Source: an uncultured Acidobacteriota bacterium (GTDB taxonomy: Bacteria > Acidobacteriota > Thermoanaerobaculia > UBA5066 > Gp7-AA6). Taken from it: a stretch of DNA of 64,000 bases. A program made the position numbers and the translations under genes. Position 1 is the stretch's first letter; each line of letters starts with the position of its first letter. A model generated the notes under the pieces. The model was not told the origin of the DNA and did not search any database. It saw only the letters and a list, made by a program, of their open reading frames with translations. Below, in pieces: positions 6,202 to 61,394 of this stretch. The stretch lies in contig CAWGKP010000006.1 of assembly GCA_963823185.1 (NCBI GenBank), forward strand, positions 215,113-279,112. The letters run 5' to 3'.

Positions 6202-6516
6202 ATGTTGAGCGTAGACGCCGCTTTCGACCGCATCGGGTCCGCCCTCAAGCAGCGAGGCTACTCGCTCGCGAAAGAGGATCGTCCGCGCGAGGCGCCGGGC
6301 GACCGCTACGCCGTCTTCTCCTCGCAGGACATGTCCGTCCGCGTCTCCTGGAAGGAGAAGGCCCGCATTCTCGCGCTCGAGGTGGAGGCCGACGGCGCCT
6401 GGACCGAGTTCGCGCGGCGGGGCTTCGGGCCGACGGGGCTCGAGGAAACGGCCGTCGAGGTCCTCGTGCGCGCCGTGCGAAACGAGGTCGCCGAGACGTC
6501 GACGGACGCGGATTAA
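6202..6516 (+). CDS. hypothetical protein (104 aa)
   Basis: Balanced, non-Arg-biased composition. GAGG lies 7 nt upstream of the ATG. No family recognised. Confidence 0.55.
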   Translation: MLSVDAAFDRIGSALKQRGYSLAKEDRPREAPGDRYAVFSSQDMSVRVSWKEKARILALEVEADGAWTEFARRGFGPTGLEETAVEVLVRAVRNEVAETSTDAD

Positions 6517-6517
6517 G

Positions 6518-6733
6518 CCGTCGCCGGAGCTTGCTCGGGGATCTGGCTGCCGCCTCGAGCGAAGCGGTTGCTCTGCTCCCGGATCGGCGCCGCTGCCGGC
6601 GCTCGGCTCGGCCAAAGGCCTCGACCGCGCGCCTGATCGCCTCGCTTCGCTCCGGCTCCCGCGGCGCGCGCCTCCTCCCTCGCTTCCGCTCGGGAGACTT
6701 CGCGCGCCGCGAGCGCATGGATCTGCTCGACGG
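6518..6733 (+). repeat. 216-bp intergenic repeat with CCGTCG...CGACGG termini (MITE-like), copy C
   Basis: Aligns by eye along its length with reverse-complemented 49348..49570 and 60368..60586. Shared core: CGGCTCG[G/C]CCAAAGG(G)[C/G]CTCGA[C/T]CG..GCCTGAT. Starts 1 nt after the TAA of 6202..6516. Confidence 0.7.
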
Positions 6734-6752
6734 AATCTTCAATCACGTGCCC

Positions 6753-6777
6753 GTAGGGGCAGGGCTTGTCCCTGCCC
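6753..6777. repeat. REP-like GC-rich hairpin (GTAGGGGC-AGGG-CTTGT-CCCT-GCCC)
   Basis: Perfect stem-loop. Same family as the copies at 22745..22811, 39165..39224 and 49317..49341. Confidence 0.8.
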
Positions 6778-6869
6778 GATGTAGCCGCGTGGCATCTCCC
6801 TGGGAAGGAGAGCCGCGCTAGTCTTCGGAACCGGTCTGCGCGGCTTGCGTTTCTAGTCGAGGAGGTCTG

Positions 6870-7754
6870 ATGCTGGAAATCCGCTCGATCGGCAAGCGCT
6901 ATCCCGACGGGACGGTCGGGCTCGAGGAGTTCTCGCTCGCGGTCGGCGAGGGCGTGCTGGGGCTGCTCGGCGGAAACGGAGCGGGGAAGACCACGCTGAT
7001 GTCGCTGCTCGCGACGGTGACGCGCCCGACGTCGGGCACGTTTCTCTGGGAAGGGCGCGACGGCGTGGCCGACCCGCTCGCCGTGCGCCGCGTCCTCGGC
7101 TACCTGCCGCAGGACTTCGGCGTCTACGAGAAGCTGACCGCGCGCGAGTTCCTCGCCTACCTCGGCCGACTCAAGGGCCTCTCGGGCGCCGATCTCTCGC
7201 GCCGCGTGCAGCAGCTGCTCGAGCTGACGAACCTCCACGGCGCCGCGGACCGGAGGCTCGCGGGATTCTCCGGCGGAATGCGGCAGCGCGTCGGAATCGC
7301 CCAGGCGCTCCTCGGCGATCCGAAGCTCGTCATCGTGGATGAGCCGACCGTGGGTCTCGATCCGGAGGAGCGCGTCCGCTTCCGCAATCTCCTCTCGGAG
7401 ATCGCGCAGGGCCGCGTCGTGATCCTCTCGACGCACATCGTGTCGGACGTCGAGGCGGTGGCGTCCTCGATCGCCGTGATCCGGAAGGGCCGTCTCGTGC
7501 GGCACGCCACCCCGGAGGACCTCCTGCGCGACGCGGTCGGGCGCGTCTTCTCGGCCGTCGTGACGTCGGAGAAGCTGCCCGAGGCGCAGCGGAGCGTGCA
7601 CGTCTCGAACCTCATCCGGCGGGCCGACGGCGTGCACGTGCGCTTCGTCGGGCGCGGCGCGTCGCTCCCGGGCGCTCGCGAGGTCGAGCCGAACCTCGAG
7701 GACGCCTACCTCCTGACGAACCTCGAGGCGGACGCTCGGCGGCCCGCGGCGTGA
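6870..7754 (+). CDS. ABC transporter ATP-binding protein (ABC-2 type)
   Basis: Walker A GGNGAGKTT, signature FSGGMRQRVGIAQAL, Walker B VIVDEPTVGLD, H-loop STHI. Confidence 0.9.
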   Translation: MLEIRSIGKRYPDGTVGLEEFSLAVGEGVLGLLGGNGAGKTTLMSLLATVTRPTSGTFLWEGRDGVADPLAVRRVLGYLPQDFGVYEKLTAREFLAYLGRLKGLSGADLSRRVQQLLELTNLHGAADRRLAGFSGGMRQRVGIAQALLGDPKLVIVDEPTVGLDPEERVRFRNLLSEIAQGRVVILSTHIVSDVEAVASSIAVIRKGRLVRHATPEDLLRDAVGRVFSAVVTSEKLPEAQRSVHVSNLIRRADGVHVRFVGRGASLPGAREVEPNLEDAYLLTNLEADARRPAA

Positions 7755-42187: not shown

Positions 42188-44416
42188 GTGAAGATCCCTC
42201 TTCTCGTTGTCGTGGTCGCTCTCTGCGCGCGCGGCCTCGCGGGCGAGGAAGCGGGCGAGTTCCGGATGAAGCTTCCGCGGATCGCGGAGCCGATCCGCGT
42301 GGACGGCGACCTCTCGGACCCGGGCTGGCGCGAGGCGGCGGTCGTCGACACCTTCTATGAGATCGCGCCCGGCGACAACGTCCCTCCGCCCGTGAAGACC
42401 GTCGCGCGCATCGGCTACGACGACCGCTTCCTCTACGTGTCCTTCTGGTGCCAGGACCCGGACATTCGGAAGCTGCGCGCGCCGTATGTCGACCGCGACG
42501 GCATCACGGACGACCAGGACTACGTCGGGGTCCTGCTCGACGTGGAGAACCAGCACCGCGCGGCGATCGATTTCTGGATCGGACCACGCGGCATCCAGGC
42601 CGACTCGGTCTTCAACGAGGGGACGTTCACCGAGGACTTCGGGCCGGACTACTTCTGGCAGTCGGCGGCGGCAATCGGGCCGGACGGCTGGACGGCGGAG
42701 GTCGCGATCCCGCTCTCCTCGCTGCGATACGCGGAGAAGGACCCGCAGGACTGGGCACTGATGCTTTACCGCGTCTATCCGCGCGACTTCAACTACCAGT
42801 TCTACAACGTCAAGGTCCCGCGCGGCGCGGCCTGCTTTCTCTGCCAGTCCGCGACGGTCGAGAACATCTCGGGGCTCCCGCGGAGCGCGCACCTCGTGGT
42901 CGCGCCGTATGCCGCCGGGTCGAGCACGAAGACGTACCCCGGAGCCGACGGATACTCCGGCGACGGTCTCGTCACGAAAGGAAAGGTCGGCGTGGACGCC
43001 AAGTGGCTGCCCGACGCGGACACGATCGTGGACGGGACGCTGAACCCCGACTTCTCGCAGATCGAGTCGGACGTGGCGCAGATCGCGGTCAACGAGCGTT
43101 TCGCCCTCTTCTATCCCGAGAAGCGTCCCTTCTTCCTCGAGCAGGTCAACCTCCTGCAGACGCCGATCCAGGCGGTCTACACGCGCACGATCACCGATCC
43201 GCTGTGGGGCGCGCGCGTCACGGGCCGCGGCGGAAGCACGTCCTACACGGCGCTCGTGACGGAGGACCGCGGCGGGGGCACCGTCATCCTGCCCGGCCCG
43301 GTCTTCTCGGACGTCGCGCCTCAGGACTACACGTCCTTCGTCGGCATCGGGCGGCTGCGCCAGGACCTGGGCAGCTCCTTCGCGGGACTCCTCGGAACCG
43401 CTCGCGTCATCGACGGCGGCGGCCACAACTACGTCTTCGGCGGCGATTTCCAGTGGCGGCCCAACGGCGCCGACGTCGTCACCGGGCAGTACCTCTACAG
43501 CCTCACGCGCGAGCCCGACCGGCCCGATCTCTCGCCCTCCTTCGCCGGACAGGCGTTTTCGGGCTTCGGCTGGACGGCGGCGTACAGCCACTCGTCCGAC
43601 CATTGGAGCTGGAACTACACGCACAACGACTTCGCGGACGGCTTCCGCGCGGACGAGGGGTTCGTGCCCCAGGTCGGCTATCGCGAGGACAACGCCGGAC
43701 TGTCGTACACCTTCTATCCGACGGGATTCTTCTCGCGACTGCGGCCGCTCGGCAGCGCGGACGTCGCCGTGGACCGCGACGGTGAGCTGATCTCGCGCAA
43801 GCTCTACCCGGGCGTCGCCTTCCGGGCGTGGGGCGGCCTGCGCGGCGAGCTCGACTACGACTTCGAGGCCGTGCGGATCGACGGGACGCGGCTCGAGTAC
43901 GACCGGTTCGTCTTCAACGTCGCGGCGTCCCCGTCGCGGCTCTTTCCGACGATCGGCATCCAGGGCAACTATGGAGAGCAGGCCGACGTCACGAACGTCC
44001 GCGTCGGCACGGGCGGGACGGTCACTCTGACCGCCCTCGTGCGGCCGGCCGAACATCTGGGGCTGGATCTGCTCGCCGAGCGCCAGTGGCTCGACGAAAC
44101 CGTGGACGGCCGCCACGGCCGCCTCTTCACCGCCGACGTCGCGCGGGTCAAGGCGACCTGGGTCTTCAGCGCGCGCACGCTCGTCCGCCTGATCGGCCAG
44201 TACGTGGACGTGCGGCGCGATCCGTCGCTCTGGAACAATGTCGTGACAGCCCGCGAGGGCTCGTTCGCCGGATCGGCGCTCTTCGCCTACAAGCTGAACT
44301 GGCAGACGGTCGTCTTCGTCGGATACGGAGACAACCGCACCCTTCAGGAGTCGGGCGACCTGACGCGTGCGGATCGCCAGTTCTTCCTGAAGCTCTCCTA
44401 TGCCTTCCAGCGTTAG
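42188..44416 (+). CDS. CBM9-like / DUF5916-type outer-membrane beta-barrel protein
   Basis: C-terminal part of track ORF 39356..44416, from GTG 42188. Signal peptide, IRVDGDLSDPGWREAAVVDTFYEI (CBM9-like), NPDFSQIESD, and terminal FFLKLSYAFQR. Confidence 0.8.
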   Translation: MKIPLLVVVVALCARGLAGEEAGEFRMKLPRIAEPIRVDGDLSDPGWREAAVVDTFYEIAPGDNVPPPVKTVARIGYDDRFLYVSFWCQDPDIRKLRAPYVDRDGITDDQDYVGVLLDVENQHRAAIDFWIGPRGIQADSVFNEGTFTEDFGPDYFWQSAAAIGPDGWTAEVAIPLSSLRYAEKDPQDWALMLYRVYPRDFNYQFYNVKVPRGAACFLCQSATVENISGLPRSAHLVVAPYAAGSSTKTYPGADGYSGDGLVTKGKVGVDAKWLPDADTIVDGTLNPDFSQIESDVAQIAVNERFALFYPEKRPFFLEQVNLLQTPIQAVYTRTITDPLWGARVTGRGGSTSYTALVTEDRGGGTVILPGPVFSDVAPQDYTSFVGIGRLRQDLGSSFAGLLGTARVIDGGGHNYVFGGDFQWRPNGADVVTGQYLYSLTREPDRPDLSPSFAGQAFSGFGWTAAYSHSSDHWSWNYTHNDFADGFRADEGFVPQVGYREDNAGLSYTFYPTGFFSRLRPLGSADVAVDRDGELISRKLYPGVAFRAWGGLRGELDYDFEAVRIDGTRLEYDRFVFNVAASPSRLFPTIGIQGNYGEQADVTNVRVGTGGTVTLTALVRPAEHLGLDLLAERQWLDETVDGRHGRLFTADVARVKATWVFSARTLVRLIGQYVDVRRDPSLWNNVVTAREGSFAGSALFAYKLNWQTVVFVGYGDNRTLQESGDLTRADRQFFLKLSYAFQR

Positions 44417-44476
44417 CGCTCGACGTCGGCCGGGACGACCGAGAACCCGCGGGGGCGAGCGGCGTAACACTCTGCA

Positions 44477-46757
44477 GTGAGACGACTCGCCGCGGCGCTC
44501 TCCGCCGTCCTGTCCGCGGGCGCCGCCGCGGCGCAGCCGCAGCCGTCAGTCCCGCCGCCCCTGCGCGTGCCCGTCGCCTCGGGACCGATCACGATCGATG
44601 GCCGCCTCTCGGAGGACGCGTGGAAGAGCGCCGCCGTGATCGACGAGTTCTGGGAGACCAATCCCGGCGACAACACGCCGCCGAAGGTCAAGACCGTGGC
44701 CTACCTGGCCTACGACGACCGTTTCCTCTACATCGGCCTGCGCTGCGACGATCCCGAGCCCGACAAGATCCGCGCGCCGTTCGTCGAGCGCGACCAGGTG
44801 CTCGGGACCGACGACAACGTCGCGGTCTTCATCGACACGCGCAACGACCGCCGCTCGGCGATGGAGTTCCGGGTCAACCCGCGCGGCATCCAGGGCGACG
44901 CGATGTTCAACGACGCGAACGGCAACGAAAACCTCTCGCCCGATTTCTTCTACGACACGGCGGCGGAGATCGGGCCGCAGGGCTGGACGGCCGAGATGCG
45001 CATTCCGCTCTCGACGCTGCGGTACAAGAAGACGGATTCGCAGAAGATGGGGATCATCATCTGGCGCAACTATCCCCGCGACTATCGGTACGCCATCTAC
45101 TCCAGCCCGCAGCCGCGCGGATCCAACTGTCTGATCTGCTTCTCGCGCGAGCTGACGGGGTTCGAGAACCTCCCGTCGGGACAGCACTTCGTGATCGCGC
45201 CGTACGTCTCGGCGAAGGAGGATGGCGCGCCGCGTGATCCGGCGGATCCCGACTCCGCCTTCTTCAACCAGCCGGTCGAGCCCAATGGCGGCGGCGACAT
45301 CAAGTGGATCCCGAATCCCGACACGGCCGTGGACGCGACGATCAACCCGGACTTCTCGCAGGTCGAGTCGGACACGGCGCAGATCGCCGTGAACCAGCGG
45401 TTCGCGCTCCTCTTTCCCGAGAAACGTCCGTTCTTCCTCGAGGGCGTCGACCTGTTCGACACGCCGATCTCGGCCGTGTACACCCGCACGATCACGGACC
45501 CGAGCTGGGGGCTGCGCGGCACCGGCAAGATCGACTCCTCGAGCTACACGGTCCTCGTCGCGGAGGACCGCGGCGGCGGCACGGTGGTCCTGCCCGGGCC
45601 GGAGTTCTCGACCTCCGCGCCGCAGGACTTCCATTCGTTCGTCGCGATCGGCCGGCTGCGGCACGACTTCGGGACTTCGTTCGGCGGGCTCCTGCTGACC
45701 GACCGCGAGATTTCGGGCGGCGGGCACAATCGCCTGTTCGGTCCCGACTTTCAGTGGGCGATCGGGACCGACGACCGCATCACGGCGCAGTACCTCTACA
45801 CCGACTCCCAGGAGCCGAACCGGCCCGATCTCTCGCCGGCTTTCAACGGAGAGCATCTCTCGGGCCACGGCCTCTTCGCTCGACTGGACGCACACGAACC
45901 TCACGACTTTCTTCGAGGCGACTTACAAGGACTTCTCCGACGGCTTCCGCGCGGACGACGGCTTCGTGCCCCAGGTGGGATATCGGGAGGGGATACTGAG
46001 CCTGGGCCGGCCGTTCTATCCGACGACCGGGCTCTTCAGCTACCTGCGGCCCCACGTGGGAGTGGACTACCAGGAGGACCGCGAGGACCAGATGATCTTC
46101 CGGAGGATCTCTTCCGGGCTCGACTTCCTCGGGAAGAAGAACCTGGCGGGCTACGTCCACGCGAACCTCGACACGGTCCGCGTGTCCGGAAAGCTTCTGT
46201 CCGCGGACTACGCCACTTTCCAGATCCAGGTCGATCCCTCGCGGCGTTTCACGCGGATCACCCTGACCGGCTCGGCCGGCCAGCAGATCGACTTCGACAA
46301 CGCGCGGGAGGGGCACGGCGCCGACGTCGCGCTGACCCTGACGCTCCATCCGACGGACCATCTCGAGGTGATCGCGCTCGGCGAGCGCAGCTGGCTCGAC
46401 GTGCCGCCGACACCCGGCGCCGACGCGCAGCGCCTCTTCACGGCGTGGATCGGCCGGCTCAAGGCCACGTACGTCTTCGATGCGCGCCTGTCGCTGCGCT
46501 TGATCGGACAGTGGGTCGAGACGCAGCGCGATCCCTCGCTCTACACGTTCCCCGTGCCGGCGCGTGACGGCCGGTTCGACGGCTCGGTGCTCTTCTCCTA
46601 CAAGGTCAACTGGCAGACCGTGGCATACCTCGGCTACGGCGACAGTCACGCGCTCTTTCCCGAGGGCGACATCGTGCCGGTGCCCCCGACTTCGTTCCGT
46701 CTCGCGCCACTCTCGCGGCAGTTCTTCCTCAAGATCTCGTACGCGTTCCAGCGTTAG
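44477..46757 (+). pseudogene. tandem paralogue of the CBM9/DUF5916 outer-membrane protein with one frame break near 45865..45885
   Basis: Track ORF 44477..46567 is collinear with 42188..44416 up to ...DLSPAFNGEHLSGHG, then turns into Arg-rich nonsense. The sequence resumes in another frame (SSLDWTHTNLTTFFEATYKDFSDGFRADDGFVPQVGYREG..., track ORF 45966..46757) and ends FFLKISYAFQR. Confidence 0.75.
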
Positions 46758-46783: not shown

Positions 46784-49291
46784 ATGCGACGCGTCATTCT
46801 CGGGGCGCTCCTCGTCTGCGCGGGCCTCGCGCCGTGTCTGTCGGCGCAGGTCCTGCCCGGCCACCGGGTTCCGGACGGGCCGGAGCGCGCCGTGCGCGAG
46901 CGCGACTTCCGCGTCGAGAGCTACAAGGCGGAGCTCGCCTTCGACATGGAGCACGAGAAGATCTCGGGAACCGTCACCCTCGGCGTCGACTCGCTGCGGT
47001 CGCCGCTGACGACGCTCTCGCTCGACGCGGCGGATCTCGTCGTCTCCCGCGCGGAGCGGGACGGCAAACCGGCGAAGTTCACGACGGATTCGAAGGCCTG
47101 GAAGCTCGACGTCGCGTTGGATCCGCCGCTGTCCGCGGGAGCGAAGGCCAGCGTCGCGATCACGTATACCGTGTCGCCGCGCGTCGGCATGTACTTCTTC
47201 CCGCCGGCCGGCGGACGCCCGGCGCAGGCCTGGAACTACGGGGAAGGAGGCCTGCACAACGGCTGGCTGCCGCTCTACAACGGCGAAAACGAGCGCTTTC
47301 CCGTCGAGTGGCTCGTCACGGTCCCGAAGGGCTTCTCCGCCGTCGCCAACGGCAAGCTCGAGTCGGTGCGCGAGAACGCCGGCGGCACGCGCACCTTTCA
47401 CTGGATCCAGGAGAAGCCGATCCCGGCGTATCTGCTGACCGTGGACGTCGGCGACTTCGTCGCGGTGCCGCTCGATTCCGCCCGCGTGGGGACGGCGACC
47501 GTGCCGCTCTCCGCCTGGACGCCGCCCGGTACCGAAAACGCGGCGCGCCACTCCTTCGGCAATACGGCGCGGATGATCGAGTTCTTCTCCGAGACGATGC
47601 GCTACCCGTATCCGTGGGTGAAGTACGACTCCGTCGCGCTGCGCGAGTTCGCCGTGGGCGCCATGGAGACGACGACGGCGACCGGCTTCGGCGAATCGCA
47701 CCTGCACGTTGACGGGGACCCGCCCGACTCGGCGCCGGACTACGAGAAGCCCTACCCGATCTGGACGTACGAGGACACGATCGCGCACGAGCTCGCGCAC
47801 CACTGGTTCGGCGATCTCGTGACTTGCCGCTCGCTCTCTTCGATCTGGCTGAACGAGTCCTTCGCGTCCTACTGGCACACCGTGTGGAACGGCCACGCGC
47901 ACGGCCAGGACGACTTGACGTACCAGCGGTGGCGGTATCTGAACGACTACCTCGACTACGTGCGGCAGACCGGCGAGGTCCGGCCGATGGAGTCGTACCG
48001 GTGGAAGGAGCCCGCGCAGATGTACCAGTCGCAGTTGACGTACATCAAGGGCTCGCTCGTGCTCCACATGCTGCGCCACTTCGTGGGAGACGACACGTTC
48101 TATGGCGCGCTCGCCTGGTATCTCCGGCACAACGAGCTGTCCAGCGTCGATTCGAACGACCTGCGCGAGGCGTTCGAGCGCGCCGGAGGGCGCAACGTCT
48201 CCTGGTTCTTCCAGGACTGGATCCAGAAGGGCGGCGGCCACCCGCGCTTCGACGTGTCCTATGTCTGGTCCGCCGACCGCAAGCAGGTCGATCTGACGGT
48301 GCGTCAGATCCAGGCAGACCTGCCCTTCGAGAACGATTTCCGGCTGCCGGTCGAGATCGAGATCGCGGACGAATCGGGCGCGAAGGTCCATCGCGTCGAG
48401 CTCTCGGGCTGGGAGACGAAGGTCGCGCTTCCGGCGCCGTCGCGTCCGCGCCGCGTGACGTTCGACAAGGGCGGCTGGCTCGTCAGCGAGGTGAAGTACG
48501 ACCGCCCCATCGACGAGGTCCTGGACGAGCTGCGCGGCGGCGACCTCGCGGCCCGCCTGCGCGCGGCGCGGCAGCTCGCGGACGACTTCCCGCGGGATCC
48601 GCGGGCGCAATCGGCTCTGGCGTCGGTCCTCGCGGACGCGGGCGCATTCTGGGGACTGCGCCAGGAGGCCGCGATGGATCTCGGCGCGGCGGGCGGCGAG
48701 TCCGCGGCGCGGGCGCTGGAGAAGGCGATCGGAGATTCCGACCGGCGCGTGCGGCGCGCGGCGGCGCTGGCGCTCGGCGCGTGCGGGTCCGCGTCGTCGG
48801 CGGCGGTGCTGCGCCGGACGGTCGAGACGGACGCCGCCGAGGACGTGGTCGCGGCGGCGGAGATCTCGCTCGGGAGGCTGCGCGCCTCGGGGGCGAAGGA
48901 GTTTCTGACGAAGCAGCTGTCCCGCGACTCGCGCTACTGGGACTCGATCCGGGTCGGCGCGTTAATCGGCCTCGGGAAACTGCAGGACGCCTCGCTCGCC
49001 GCGACGTTCGATTCCTGGACCGACCCGAAGCACCGCCAGGACGTGCGCGCCGCCGCGCTCGAGGCCTGGGAGGCGTCGTCGCCCGGGGATCCACGCCTCG
49101 CCGAACGGTTGCGACAGTTCACGTCGGACCGGAACCGCCAGATCCGCGAGGACGCCATCAAGAAGCTCGCGACCCTCCACAGCGAGAGCGATCTCGGGCT
49201 CCTCAAGAAGCTGTCGGAGGATCCGGATCCTTCCGTGTCCGAGTTCGCGAAGGAGGGGATCGAAGAGATCGAGGCGTTCGTCAAGCGGTAG
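46784..49291 (+). CDS. M1-family aminopeptidase with C-terminal HEAT-repeat region
   Basis: 835 aa. Signal peptide, GAMET exopeptidase motif, HELAHHWFGD...WLNESFASY (HEXXH-18-E), and C-terminal repeats (DSDRRVRRAAALALG..., DRNRQIREDAIKKLA..., DPDPSVSEFAKEGI). Confidence 0.9.
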   Translation: MRRVILGALLVCAGLAPCLSAQVLPGHRVPDGPERAVRERDFRVESYKAELAFDMEHEKISGTVTLGVDSLRSPLTTLSLDAADLVVSRAERDGKPAKFTTDSKAWKLDVALDPPLSAGAKASVAITYTVSPRVGMYFFPPAGGRPAQAWNYGEGGLHNGWLPLYNGENERFPVEWLVTVPKGFSAVANGKLESVRENAGGTRTFHWIQEKPIPAYLLTVDVGDFVAVPLDSARVGTATVPLSAWTPPGTENAARHSFGNTARMIEFFSETMRYPYPWVKYDSVALREFAVGAMETTTATGFGESHLHVDGDPPDSAPDYEKPYPIWTYEDTIAHELAHHWFGDLVTCRSLSSIWLNESFASYWHTVWNGHAHGQDDLTYQRWRYLNDYLDYVRQTGEVRPMESYRWKEPAQMYQSQLTYIKGSLVLHMLRHFVGDDTFYGALAWYLRHNELSSVDSNDLREAFERAGGRNVSWFFQDWIQKGGGHPRFDVSYVWSADRKQVDLTVRQIQADLPFENDFRLPVEIEIADESGAKVHRVELSGWETKVALPAPSRPRRVTFDKGGWLVSEVKYDRPIDEVLDELRGGDLAARLRAARQLADDFPRDPRAQSALASVLADAGAFWGLRQEAAMDLGAAGGESAARALEKAIGDSDRRVRRAAALALGACGSASSAAVLRRTVETDAAEDVVAAAEISLGRLRASGAKEFLTKQLSRDSRYWDSIRVGALIGLGKLQDASLAATFDSWTDPKHRQDVRAAALEAWEASSPGDPRLAERLRQFTSDRNRQIREDAIKKLATLHSESDLGLLKKLSEDPDPSVSEFAKEGIEEIEAFVKR

Positions 49292-49316
49292 CGGCGGGGT
49301 TCGTCCTCTCGCATGC

Positions 49317-49341
49317 GGGCGGCCGCAAGGGCCGCCCCTAC
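49317..49341. repeat. REP-like hairpin GGGCGGCC-GCAAG-GGCCGCCC-CTAC
   Basis: Identical 25-mer to 39200..39224. Lies 6 nt from the end of repeat copy A. Confidence 0.85.
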
Positions 49342-49347
49342 GCGACT

Positions 49348-49570
49348 CCGTCGCCTTCGCTTCGTCGCGTTGCGATCGGAATGAACTCCCGAGGCCGGAT
49401 CCATCCTCGCTCGCGGCGCGAGGAGTCTCCGCGAAGTAACCGAGCGGAGGAGCCTCGCGCCGCGGGAGTGAGCGCCGAGAGAGGAATCAGGCGGACGGTC
49501 GAGCCCCTTTGGGCGAGCCGGTCGCCGGTGCGCCGCAGGAGCAGATTCCGAACGAGAGCGCGAGCGACGG
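49348..49570 (-). repeat. 223-bp intergenic repeat with CCGTCG...CGACGG termini (MITE-like), copy A
   Basis: Abuts the stop codon (49571..49573) of the minus-strand ABC ATPase gene with 0-nt gap. Arms CCGTCGCTCGCGCTCTCGTTCGGAAT and CCGTCGCCTTCGCTTCGTCGCGTTGCGATCGGAAT are inverted. Core 49484..49520 is nearly identical to 60459..60495. Confidence 0.75.
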
Positions 49571-50290
49571 CTACGCTGCGACTTCCCCGTCCTTGATGAT
49601 CCGGCCGTCGCGCACCTCGACGACGCGCCCGGCGCGCCGCGCCAGGGTCATGTCGTGCGTGATCACGACGAGGGTGCGTCCCTGCTGCCAGAGCTCGGTG
49701 AAGAGCCCCATGACGTCGCCGCCCGAGGAGGTGTCCAGGTTTCCCGTCGGCTCGTCGGCGAGCAGGATGTCCGGGTTCATCGCCAGCGCCCGGGCGATCG
49801 CGACGCGCTGCATCTGTCCGCCGGAGAGCTCCGTCGGCTTGTGGTCCATGCGGTCCGCCAGCCCGACCTTGGTCAGCAGCTCCTCGACGCGCTCCTTGCG
49901 CTTCTTCGGCGGCACGCCGCCGAAGAGGAGCGGCATCTCGACGTTCTCGTACGCCGAGATCTGCGGCAGCAGATTGAAGTTCTGAAACACGAATCCGACG
50001 CGCCGATTCCGGATGTCCGCGAGGTCGTCGCGCGAGAGGCCGGAGACGTCCTCGCCGGCGAGATGGTAGGTGCCGTCGCTCGGCGTGTCGAGACAGCCGA
50101 TCAGGTTCATCAGCGTCGACTTGCCGGAGCCCGAGGGTCCGACGATCGCCAAGAACTCGCCGGCCGCGACGGAGAGGTCGATGCCCTTCAGCGCCTCGAC
50201 CCGGACCTTCCCGGTGTCGTAGATCTTCCGGATCCGGTCCATGGCGATGACGGGGCCGTCGGCCGCAGGCATGGCTCTCTCCTTACTCAT
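49571..50290 (-). CDS. ABC transporter ATP-binding protein (MacB/LolD type)
   Basis: GPSGSGKST, FQNFNLLP, LSGGQMQRVAIARAL, LLADEPTGNLD, ITHD. ATG 50272 is an alternative start. Confidence 0.9.
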   Translation of the reverse strand: MSKERAMPAADGPVIAMDRIRKIYDTGKVRVEALKGIDLSVAAGEFLAIVGPSGSGKSTLMNLIGCLDTPSDGTYHLAGEDVSGLSRDDLADIRNRRVGFVFQNFNLLPQISAYENVEMPLLFGGVPPKKRKERVEELLTKVGLADRMDHKPTELSGGQMQRVAIARALAMNPDILLADEPTGNLDTSSGGDVMGLFTELWQQGRTLVVITHDMTLARRAGRVVEVRDGRIIKDGEVAA

Positions 50291-59963: not shown

Positions 59964-60362
59964 ATGAAGTCCCTGCGTGCGATTGCGATCCCGGCCGTCC
60001 TGGCCGTCGCGGCTTTCTTCGCGTCACCCGGCACGGCCTCCGCCGGGGGACATTTCCACGGAGGCGGACACTTCCACGGAGGCTTTCATTCGGCGCACGT
60101 CCGCGTCGCCGTTGGAGTTCCATTCTTCGCGCCTTCCGTCGTCGTCGCGGCGCCCTATGCCGCGTACTCCTCCTGTCCGTCGCCCTACGCGTACGGGTAC
60201 GGGGCGCCTTACGCGTACCCCTACGGATACGGCTACGCGGGCTACGGAGCGCCGGTCGCCTACTTCTCGGTCCGCGCGCGCGGCTTCCCGGTCGCGCACT
60301 TCCACGGTGGCGGGCACGGCCACGGTGGATTCCACGGCCACGTCGCCGTCCACCACCACTGA
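59964..60362 (+). CDS. secreted His/Gly/Tyr-rich low-complexity protein
   Basis: GGAGGTATTGGAG then ATG. Signal peptide MKSLRAIAIPAVLAVAAFFASPGTASA. Mature part GGHFHGGGHFHGGFHSAH...YAYGYGAPYAYPYGYGYAGYG...HFHGGGHGHGGFHGHVAVHHH. Confidence 0.65.
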   Translation: MKSLRAIAIPAVLAVAAFFASPGTASAGGHFHGGGHFHGGFHSAHVRVAVGVPFFAPSVVVAAPYAAYSSCPSPYAYGYGAPYAYPYGYGYAGYGAPVAYFSVRARGFPVAHFHGGGHGHGGFHGHVAVHHH

Positions 60363-60367
60363 CCCGG

Positions 60368-60586
60368 CCGTCGGGTTCTCCCGTTCGCAACGCGACCAAG
60401 GTTTGCGAAGTTCACCGAGCAAACCGACTCGCGTTGCGGGAGCCGGAGCGCAGCGAGCGAATCAGGCGAGCGATCGAGCCCCTTTGGGCGAGCCGCGAGC
60501 AGGTGGCGCGCCCCGAATCCGTGACAGACCCGCGATGGCCGACGGCATGAGGGCGCGTCAGATTCGCGAGCAAGCGAAGGCGACGG
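60368..60586 (-). repeat. 219-bp intergenic repeat with CCGTCG...CGACGG termini (MITE-like), copy B
   Basis: Fills the whole gap between convergent genes. It begins 5 nt after the stop of 59964..60362 and ends 1 nt before the stop (60588..60590) of the SGNH hydrolase gene. Same orientation relative to the abutted gene as copies A and C. Confidence 0.75.
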
Positions 60587-60587
60587 T

Positions 60588-61394
60588 CTACTCCAGAACC
60601 TGCAGGAAACGCGTCGCGATGAGGCCGTAGCCCTCGCGGTTCGGGTGGAAGTGGTCGATCGCGAGGCGATCCTCGCGGCCCTCGAAGAGATCGAAGGTCG
60701 GCACGACGACCACGTTCGGAAATGAGAACGCCGTCTCCTGCGCAACGGTGTTCCAGTTCAGGATCACGGACTTTCCGAGACGCGTCGAGCCGGTGACGCT
60801 CTCGAACGGATCGTAGAGCGCGAGCAGGCGGATCGGCGCCTCGGGATTGGCCTCCCGCAGTCCCGCCAGGATCGCGCGCAGATTCCCGGCGTAAGCGTCG
60901 CGGGCGCGGGCGACATCCTCGAGCGGAGACGGCGCCCGGGCATCGGCGCGCGGCACCGCGTGCGACAGGTCGTTGCCGCCGACCGAGACGAGGATCCAGG
61001 CGGCGTTGGCCGCGAGCGAGCGGACGTTCGGCTTCTCCGACAGGTCCCGCACTTCGTCCGACTCGGCGCCGTTGATGCCGAGGTTCGCGATCTCGACGGG
61101 GCCGCGCTTGCGGAGCCCGTCGAGGACGTCCGCGGCGAACCCGCGGCCCGACTCGTCTCCGGTGCCGCGGGCGAGCGAGTCGCCGAGCACGAGGAGCAGC
61201 CGGCCGTTGACGCGCGGCGGCGGCAACGACGCGGCGCGGGCCTCGGGTGGCGGCGCGCCGAGCGGCCGGCCGGCCGCACCCCGGAGCGCGAGGACGAACC
61301 CGGCGGCGAAGAGAAGCGTCGCGGCGACGCCGACCGCCGCCGGCAGTCTCCAGAGCCAGAACCGCGAGGATCCGGTCGCCACGGCGAGGATCAT
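60588..61394 (-). CDS. SGNH/GDSL-family hydrolase
   Basis: Signal anchor. Block I LVLGDSLARGTGD, block II NLGINGAES, block III VSVGGND, block V DHFHPN. Confidence 0.85.
   Translation of the reverse strand: MILAVATGSSRFWLWRLPAAVGVAATLLFAAGFVLALRGAAGRPLGAPPPEARAASLPPPRVNGRLLLVLGDSLARGTGDESGRGFAADVLDGLRKRGPVEIANLGINGAESDEVRDLSEKPNVRSLAANAAWILVSVGGNDLSHAVPRADARAPSPLEDVARARDAYAGNLRAILAGLREANPEAPIRLLALYDPFESVTGSTRLGKSVILNWNTVAQETAFSFPNVVVVPTFDLFEGREDRLAIDHFHPNREGYGLIATRFLQVLE

Follow-up and report, generated by a model that had tools for sequence, protein, structure and literature searches.

A CGTC-headed structured repeat of a soil acidobacterium that stands in fixed polarity behind stop codons and behaves as mobile DNA

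Three similar noncoding segments (copies A, B, and C) in a 64-kb stretch of DNA from an uncultured Acidobacteriota bacterium of the class Thermoanaerobaculia (GCA_963823185.1, contig CAWGKP010000006.1; hereafter the window) each begin at the stop codon of a gene and point away from it. Why should three genes end in the same repeat, and is that repeat a mobile sequence that lands at gene ends or an RNA element kept at the 3′ ends of transcripts? We followed the repeat through the genome from which the window comes (G000; 4.68 Mb, 16 contigs, 69% G+C, 87% complete) and through related genomes. The results support a family of noncoding repeats in a soil acidobacterium that behaves as mobile DNA and lies with fixed polarity behind stop codons. 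In our preferred reading, to which we give a probability of roughly 55%, copies A, B, and C are lineage-specific, non-autonomous, structure-dependent mobile repeats that are anchored at the ends of genes, would be moved in trans, and would be of the REP/REPIN or IS200/IS605-derived (‘PATE’) kind (REP, repetitive extragenic palindromic sequence; IS, insertion sequence).

The repeat family and its fold

An nhmmer model built from the three copies and iterated on G000 returned 86 matches in 65 clusters, 62 to 63 of them nearly full length. All three copies are among these matches and align over ~200 columns, which upholds the initial annotation in its claim that they are homologous and share a conserved core. 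The unit occurs in a short form of 155 to 185 nt and a long form of 200 to 230 nt, one variable hairpin making the difference. In BLAST searches the element was found in 24 of 24 genomes of the same family and in 6 of 7 of the sister family; a class-wide BLAST search detected it in 14 of 14 and 3 of 3 genomes of these two families, respectively, and in none of 103 genomes from 13 other families of the class. The core sequence is 80 to 90% conserved across genera. The family is old and not bursting: no two copies in G000 exceed 96% identity, and the median nearest-neighbor identity is 90%. A search of the literature on stop-codon-targeting bacterial repeats and on Thermoanaerobaculia repeats found no description of the element, and the family is apparently undescribed so far.

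The 5′ end, or head, is exact. It reads (C)CGTCGCC, with CGTCGC invariant and usually one extra C before it, and CGTCG stands at the 5′ end of 67 of 68 heads. An outer helix and a covarying 7-bp helix (GGGGATC/GATCCCC) close a three-way junction, which contains the variable hairpin and a 9- to 11-bp stem bearing the family’s most conserved motif, the invariant loop CTCGGCCAAAGGGCCTCGA. Downstream of the junction lies a long 3′ hairpin that differs between two subfamilies (CGCGGCGCGAG...CTCGCGCCGCG or CGCAACGCGA...TCGCGTTGCG). The whole fold comprises 41 pairs in seven helices; across 25 short-form copies, 95.6% of the cells are paired and 26 of the 41 pairs have changed on both sides, while slid controls reach 34 to 44% and no shuffle matched the observed value. 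No simple hairpin directly follows the CGTC tag in the folding analysis, which included A, B, and C; as single strands, these three each adopt the family architecture, with z-scores of −2.3, −1.1, and −1.9. Judged from filled and empty orthologous sites, the unit stops on its 3′ side where the long hairpin has its base (..CGCGA[ACG]C), beyond which the sequence varies among copies. The unit has one defined end and not two inverted ends.

Seen against this family architecture, the three copies and their immediate surroundings in the window are as follows.

6514-6516, plus strand: stop codon TAA of a 104-aa open reading frame (ORF; 6202-6516), 1 nt before head C
6518-6715, plus strand: copy C, element proper, 198 nt
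6716-6733: non-conserved tail of C (CATGGATCTGCTCGACGG)
6753-6777, plus strand: GTAG-tagged REP hairpin on the 3′ side of copy C, belonging to another repeat family; GTAG GGGCAGGG CTTG TCCCTGCCC
49317-49341, minus strand: GTAG-tagged REP hairpin near A, a separate family; GTAG GGGCGGCC CTTGC GGCCGCCC
49348-49379 (32 nt), plus strand: stub copy beside A, inverted and with its interior deleted, head CCGTCGCCTTCGCTT fused to hairpin end CGTCGCGTTGCGATCGG, as read from comparison with the family consensus
49380-49406: non-conserved spacer between full copy A and the stub, no match to the family model
49407-49570, minus strand: copy A, element proper; starts at 49570 with the 5′ head CCGTCGCTCGCG, continues through the three-way-junction domain, and closes at ~49407 with the long 3′ hairpin
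49571-49573, minus strand: stop codon TAG (reads CTA) of the ABC-transporter ATPase gene 49571-50290 (PF00005), flush with head A
60368-60382: non-conserved tail of B, holding a chance or relic CCGTCG, 5 nt past the TGA (60360-60362) of a convergent plus-strand ORF
60382-60586, minus strand: copy B, element proper, 205 nt, long form with extended variable hairpin
60588-60590, minus strand: stop codon TAG of the GDSL/SGNH hydrolase gene 60588-61394 (PF13472), 1 nt from head B

Elsewhere in the genome, at least seven units of a tandem heptamer, GGACTGA (GGACTGAGGACTGAGG...), lie beside an element copy ~150 to 250 nt to the right of C8:421703.

Placement behind stop codons

That each of the three segments touches the stop codon of a co-oriented gene, as first annotated, holds for the 5′ heads of A (0 nt), B (1 nt), and C (1 nt); at copy A, CGACGG passes directly into CTA at 49570/49571, with no nucleotide between the head and the ATPase stop. 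The same is true on the scale of the genome. Among 67 heads of G000, 25 lie 0 to 2 nt past the stop of a conservatively called, co-oriented gene, where 0.6% would be expected for random intergenic positions (p ~1e-38); inspection, which takes in genes missed by the crude caller, raises the number to ~37 of 67. In relatives, 15 of 39 further heads are likewise found behind co-oriented stops. The remaining heads lie 0 to 4 nt past tRNA 3′ ends, beside other repeat copies, or in the 5′ ends of genes. Element-bearing spacers are enriched in convergent and depleted in divergent gene pairs (p=2e-4).

The stops next to the heads are TAG in 11, TAA in 8, and TGA in 6 cases, against a genome usage of 40%, 7.8%, and 52%, so that TAA is enriched 4-fold (p=4e-4) and TGA depleted (p=4e-3). 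One of these three trinucleotides stands within 0 to 2 nt of ~60% of the heads. A bare stop-type trinucleotide in any frame, combined with purifying selection, can be rejected as the target: it predicts that ~24% of such heads lie on true stops, and ~90% of the heads that follow such a trinucleotide do. Short element-free spacers hold 5,493 stop-type trinucleotides, compared with 1,748 bordering true stops. The idea that the element supplies the stop codon is not supported either, as the changes between empty and filled sites run both ways (TGA to TAG/TAA at C11:216754, TAG to TGA at C1:84481) and the stop at copy B is unchanged.

Orthologous loci in congeners preserve the states before and after insertion. 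At locus A, the spacer between the convergent genes is empty and 45 to 60 nt long in three congeners (G010, G006, and G003); in G009 and G001 a single copy, oppositely oriented, occupies it and is fused with the M1-peptidase gene end, and in G000 it holds copy A set against the ABC gene. The site of copy B is empty in G001, where 12 nt separate the convergent stops, and filled in G009; that of copy C is filled in G009 and G008. Searches with joined flanks revealed empty sites for C1:84481, C11:216754, copy B, C7:361258, C7:581044, and C7:639844. Insertion was flush, and no target duplication could be seen, at C1:84481, C11:216754, C7:639844, C7:581044, and copy B, and at C7:581044 the element takes the exact place of an 11-nt spacer, both of its ends abutting stop codons. 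The heads of these young insertions already abut the stop. The closest relatives (92 to 97% flank identity) share most insertions and more distant congeners mostly lack them. Copies at one orthologous site differ in head subtype among G000, G009, and G011. The occupancy differences between congeners support, on comparative grounds, the view that the element behaves as mobile DNA.

The loci orthologous to window positions 49280-49300 in G009 (L012) and G001 (L017) contain an M1-peptidase/HEAT gene without a stop of its own; its ORF enters the element for seven codons (..EAFVK PSPSLAR*) and ends at a TAA within the head variant CTCGGTAATCTGG. In G011 (L067) and G010 (L070), the convergent spacer orthologous to C11:112389 is occupied by another hairpin repeat (CAGCTGTCAGC, GCTGAYAGC units). 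The GTAG-tagged REP family (GTAG GGGCGGGG CTYG YCCCCGCCC) is often found just distal to element copies, both in the window and in many flanks across the genome, and in relatives with empty sites the TAG of its GTAG serves as the stop codon of the gene. At C7:361258 and copy A, the stop codon of the empty state runs straight into such a REP, and after insertion GTAG stands on both sides, with up to ~10 more bases at A; in an analogous empty site of G001, the gene stop TAG is likewise continued by this type of REP. At A, 49338-49347 carries AGTCGCGTAG, which repeats the ABC gene end AGTCGCAGCGTAG (49571-49583) and is a candidate target duplication of 10 to 13 nt.

For the placement at gene 3′ ends, two explanations had been offered, and they fared differently: a preference of a mobile repeat for stop-codon contexts is supported by these data, while a selected 3′-untranslated-region (3′-UTR) function gains no support from them. 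Under the latter, the element would stabilize transcripts, act as a non-canonical terminator, or give rise to small RNA, its flush position allowing the terminating ribosome to melt the outer helix. It would account for the unchanging sense orientation behind the gene touched, even for both genes of convergent pairs, for a fold conserved with covariation and a core so well kept across genera, and for the enrichment at the 3′ ends of transcription units, a trait shared with REPs (PMC3733652). The mismatches in the helices tell against it. An RNA selected on the sense strand should tolerate G·U far more than A·C, and the helices of 100 unique copies contain 72 G·T and 96 A·C mismatches. Because these two numbers are about equal, the pattern fits an unselected decay of individual copies rather than an RNA-strand signature, the fold presumably mattering at propagation. 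Moreover, orthologues in congeners do well without the element, copies also lie inside a tRNA gene and coding 5′ ends, and the folding z-scores of A, B, and C, at −1.1 to −2.3, are modest. No U-tract terminator-like site was found in 49250-49650 (A) or 6450-6900 (C), no canonical promoter at A or C, and no Rfam 15 match at gathering thresholds in the whole window. We therefore regard a selected 3′-UTR element as unlikely.

Insertions in tRNA-Pro and kinase gene starts

The tRNA-Pro(TGG) gene of G000 is interrupted after nt 24 by two tandem copies (C12:82982-83362, L038); each is preceded by a 45-nt repeat made up of the −10 box and tRNA nt 1 to 24, and an intact gene follows. The layout in G001 is the same. 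In G003 and G004 the insertions are after nt 28 and ~nt 29, respectively, and the gene is empty in G002, G006, and G010. Independent insertions after nt 24, 28, and ~29 are thus seen in four congeners (L038, L041, L043, and L048), with ~45 to 50 nt repeated each time. In G003 and G004 the truncated left copy has the promoter spacer of the empty relatives, and the functional right copy has a foreign, G000-like spacer. Since the left copy is of the resident type and the right one foreign, the arrangement points to an element that came with its own 3′ flank and was anchored by tRNA homology, rather than to a plain duplication by staggered cuts. A copying of the duplicated segment from RNA is unlikely, as the duplication takes in the −10 promoter box.

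A similar picture is presented by Ser/Thr-kinase genes. G000 has ~41 such paralogues with the N-terminus MTLxxGTxLGPYEI...LGAGGMGEVY, and the element lies directly upstream of 15 of them; in 13 of these 15, a second, truncated kinase N-terminus precedes the element. The junctions of the kinase fragments vary (after GPYD, GPYEI, GGMG[DE], or GEVY) yet always meet the exact head, and at one locus the duplication is identical in 29 of 29 nt. Paralogous loci share a block of 90 to 95% identity, made up of the element’s 3′ half and the initial ~100 nt of the kinase gene, after which identity falls to ~50%. This repeated landing in the 5′ ends of tRNA-Pro and Ser/Thr-kinase genes, with duplication of the gene start, is new.

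In all 12 kinase loci that could be scored, the truncated N-terminus has a start codon of its own and belongs to an upstream ORF of 55 to 75 codons that stays open through the entire element and ends at a TGA overlapping the kinase start (ATGA or GTGA). Examples outside the window are C1:57261, C6:317504, C7:505252, and C8:937078. The frame CGT-CGC is open in 13 of 13 copies at kinase loci, compared with 23 of 49 other copies (p=3e-4). One further upstream ORF of this sort was found in the congener G002 (L143); 30 loci fetched from other genera were mostly element-free kinases. Likely, once the element had landed in the coding 5′ end, the kinase would still be expressed through translation across the element and re-initiation at the overlapping start. 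A predicted upstream ORF that spans the element and shares its stop with the kinase start (ATGA), to which it is apparently coupled, is likewise new. Individual copies otherwise look like neutral passengers; those in gene 5′ ends would be the exception, being kept open as a predicted upstream ORF coupled to the gene.

A region of C7 rich in kinase paralogues also contains two IS110-type (PF01548) transposase genes with equal scores, 4 kb apart (C7:219159-219599 and C7:223137-223577), which are possibly an active IS. Within the window, two adjacent segments at 42983-46644 repeat at a spacing of 2301 to 2311 nt with 71 to 88% identity (repeat families D1, D2, D5, D6, D8, and D16), which suggests tandem paralogous genes.

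Termini, mobility, and relation to known repeats

The initial annotation had described perfect 6-bp termini, CCGTCG...CGACGG, and longer imperfect inverted arms, and had likened the segments to miniature inverted-repeat transposable elements (MITEs). As a family feature the termini dissolve: CGACGG occurs in 8 of 82 3′ tails (9.8%), compared with 9.7% of random 70-nt windows, and in B and C it falls in the non-conserved tail past the real 3′ end. The left arm of A (49348-49379) is a second copy, in opposite orientation and without an interior. The MITE label fails as well, as the family has neither terminal inverted repeats nor a target duplication of fixed length, nor is there an autonomous element that shares its ends. 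Duplications were not seen at four filled/empty pairs and, where present, vary from ~10 to 85 nt; a comparison of the 30 nt before the head with the 120 nt past the hairpin singled out the kinase and tRNA loci only. All nhmmer matches in the 87% complete genome are at most 230 nt long or are clusters of such units.

A classical MITE might nevertheless be sought in the pairs of copies. The element would then be a deletion derivative of a DDE-type IS, moved by cut and paste, with inverted heads CCGTCGCC...GGCGACGG and the tail-to-tail dimer as its true unit, the single copies being halves left by palindrome deletion. Tail-to-tail pairs are indeed common: complete pairs fill several convergent-gene spacers, their outer ends are perfect inverted heads of 15 to 28 nt, and a similar central spacer (..CTGTTYCAGCCGG..) in several dimers means that the dimer itself is repeated. 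A partner stub of this sort lies beside copy A, and the full-plus-stub layout is repeated at C11:112389, C13:103368, and C7:361258. Long variable duplications by DDE elements also have a precedent in IS1549/IS1634 (8 to 514 bp; PMC2266710). Against this, pairs of either kind make up only ~10 of the 65 clusters; most clusters are a single unit whose far end has no inverted head, and young single insertions (C11:216754, C7:639844, and C7:581044) are complete without a partner, ending at the base of the hairpin. Neither a fixed target duplication nor, among the nhmmer matches, a longer element with these ends around an ORF was found, and no partner DDE element came to light. A DDE-derived MITE is therefore quite improbable. 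Spread by homologous recombination, gene conversion, and homology-facilitated illegitimate recombination among copies, paralogous genes, and strains, with no dedicated mobility, is the least probable reading of all: it would suit the element-plus-kinase 5′ end that acts as a conversion block, the different head subtypes at the same site in G000, G009, and G011, and the imported look of the right-hand tRNA-Pro promoter copy in G003 and G004, but it cannot put copies behind the stops of dozens of unrelated, non-homologous genes, with an exact 5′ end at every junction and unrelated flanks at C11:216754, C1:84481, and C7:639844.

If the elements are mobile and moved in trans, what might move them? 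G000 encodes three Y1_Tnp (PF01797) ORFs of 170 to 355 aa, three IS110-type genes, and one reverse transcriptase, the latter two kinds not near element copies. TnpB (PF07282) was not detected in G000; neither was a Y2 transposase (PF04986), a result that is uninformative because control genomes gave none either. The Y1_Tnp genes were rejected as partners, given their unrelated inverted flanks, the single locus among 20 with a nearby copy, and a co-occurrence that follows phylogeny: the 320-aa type is present in 25 of 27 element-rich and 3 of 14 element-poor relatives, which is significant but confounded by phylogeny. The one Y1_Tnp gene with an element copy, ~50 nt upstream of its start, is L122 (G013 C16:48807-48929). 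The GTAG REPs of the genome are the more natural clients of Y1 enzymes.

The most economical guess at a mechanism, which we offer tentatively and consider doubtful, is a single-strand HUH-type process with a leaky 3′ end. An HUH/Y1-type nuclease would move the element in trans as single-stranded DNA, cutting 5′ of the CGTC tag and normally terminating at the 3′ hairpin. Where termination is missed, the 3′ flank would travel along and the event would be resolved by homology, and such carry-over could give the duplicated gene starts at tRNA-Pro and kinase genes. Traits in common with elements moved by HUH/Y1 enzymes are the lack of terminal inverted repeats and of a partner DDE element, the Y1_Tnp genes in the genome, and the phylogenetically confounded co-occurrence of the 320-aa type with the element. 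The choice of gene ends remains unexplained by this scheme. A bolder version, which as a whole we hold to be rather improbable, makes the element a one-ended single-strand replicator of the HUH or rolling-circle type whose targeting is coupled to gene expression: it would integrate in the non-template strand exposed where ribosomes leave, at stops, or at tRNA ends. The flush position and invariable sense orientation would be explained if integration had this target. Its leaky 3′ end would carry promoters and gene starts, remodeling tRNA-Pro and roughly one in three members of the 41-member kinase family at their 5′ ends, where the element would be kept as an upstream ORF whose translation delivers ribosomes to the start codon of the kinase.

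Several points weigh against our preferred reading of non-autonomous repeats moved in trans. No enzyme is linked to the element: a copy lies beside none of the three Y1 loci of G000 and 1 of 20 in relatives, and the Y1 genes of G000 carry inverted flanking repeats of their own that are unrelated to it. Long duplications (29 to 85 nt) are atypical for Y1 transposition. A conserved target tetranucleotide appears to be absent, ~40% of the heads have no stop-type trinucleotide, and the spacing to the stop ranges from 0 to 3 nt; HUH/Y1 elements are not known to recognize gene ends, which leaves the anchoring unexplained. Near-identical copies were not found in G000 (maximum 96%), and current activity there is accordingly not demonstrated. 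Finally, some of the presence/absence differences could stem from homologous exchange between strains and not from transposition.

Of the repeat classes described so far, the CGTC-tagged REP superfamily comes closest, although the element fails its stem, loop, and tail rules. Those REPs are 20- to 40-nt hairpins with an 8- to 9-bp stem starting with A/T pairs, a 4- to 5-nt loop, and a CCA tail; an unpaired tag, CGTC (or TGTC/CCTC), marks one terminus, and no dedicated transposase is known (Di Nocera, De Gregorio and Rocco 2013; PMC3733652). They are extragenic, mostly <20 nt behind ORF 3′ ends, sometimes intragenic, and chiefly found in Alphaproteobacteria, RPE-4 and RPE-6 being counted among them (PMC3733652). 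The element resembles them in its unpaired CGTC tag at one terminus, its place close behind ORF 3′ ends with occasional intragenic copies, its enrichment between convergent and co-directional genes, its inverted dimers, and the lack of a known transposase. It differs in size and complexity (155 to 230 nt and seven helices, including a three-way junction, instead of a single 20- to 40-nt hairpin) and in dimers that are mostly tail-to-tail, where those of CGTC REPs are mostly head-to-head.

In its workings the element appears most like REPINs and IS200/IS605-derived repeats, minus a flanking cognate transposase and, apparently, a fixed target motif. REPINs and their RAYT (Y1/HUH) transposases were reportedly treated by Bertels and Rainey in 2011. 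They are non-autonomous, hairpin-forming inverted doublets with long vertical persistence, whose copies diverge like a population, and RAYT genes are normally flanked by their own REPINs. The element, too, is non-autonomous, hairpin-forming, lineage-persistent, and population-like in its divergence, and ~10 of its 65 clusters are tail-to-tail or full-plus-stub pairs, most others being single units; in contrast, it stands beside 1 of 20 Y1 genes, and its unit is far larger and asymmetric. IS200/IS605 elements, with IS608 as the model, have no terminal inverted repeats, no target duplication, and subterminal structures, and they insert in one orientation 3′ of a short motif. Structured ends, strictly oriented insertion, and the lack of terminal inverted repeats and, in simple insertions, of duplications are shared by our element, and a single-strand logic would fit a fold that is conserved without an RNA signature. 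Unlike them, it apparently has no fixed target tetra- or pentanucleotide, and it has no cognate TnpA/TnpB that shares its ends, and long gene-start duplications occur.

Other small repeats also end up in transcription units, among them the Correia and ERIC elements, which have terminal inverted repeats and TA duplications, and the Rickettsia palindromic elements, which are in-frame inserts within proteins. Ribosomes pass through the latter without killing the gene, as is predicted for our element from its ORFs; the difference is that our element makes up an upstream ORF of its own, with a stop codon that overlaps the real gene’s start. IS91/ISCR rolling-circle elements have one defined end and carry adjacent flanks along, both likenesses to the element. 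A likeness to IS1549/IS1634 lies in the long variable duplications (8 to 514 bp at insertion; PMC2266710). Both groups are autonomous and 1.5 to 2 kb long, unlike the element.

How REPs reach gene ends, and what moves CGTC-type repeats, is a long-standing question. The family described here is unusually informative in this respect, as it is large enough for a multi-helix fold, has one exact end, and comes with natural before/after records in relatives: empty sites, fillings in opposite orientations, tRNA insertions, and kinase genes seemingly rescued by duplication and translational coupling. For the annotation of Thermoanaerobaculia genomes it matters that these repeats make spurious ORFs, shift stop codons, and break assemblies. 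For the biology of REP-like repeats, the element is a tractable system in which to find the enzyme and the rule of gene-end targeting.

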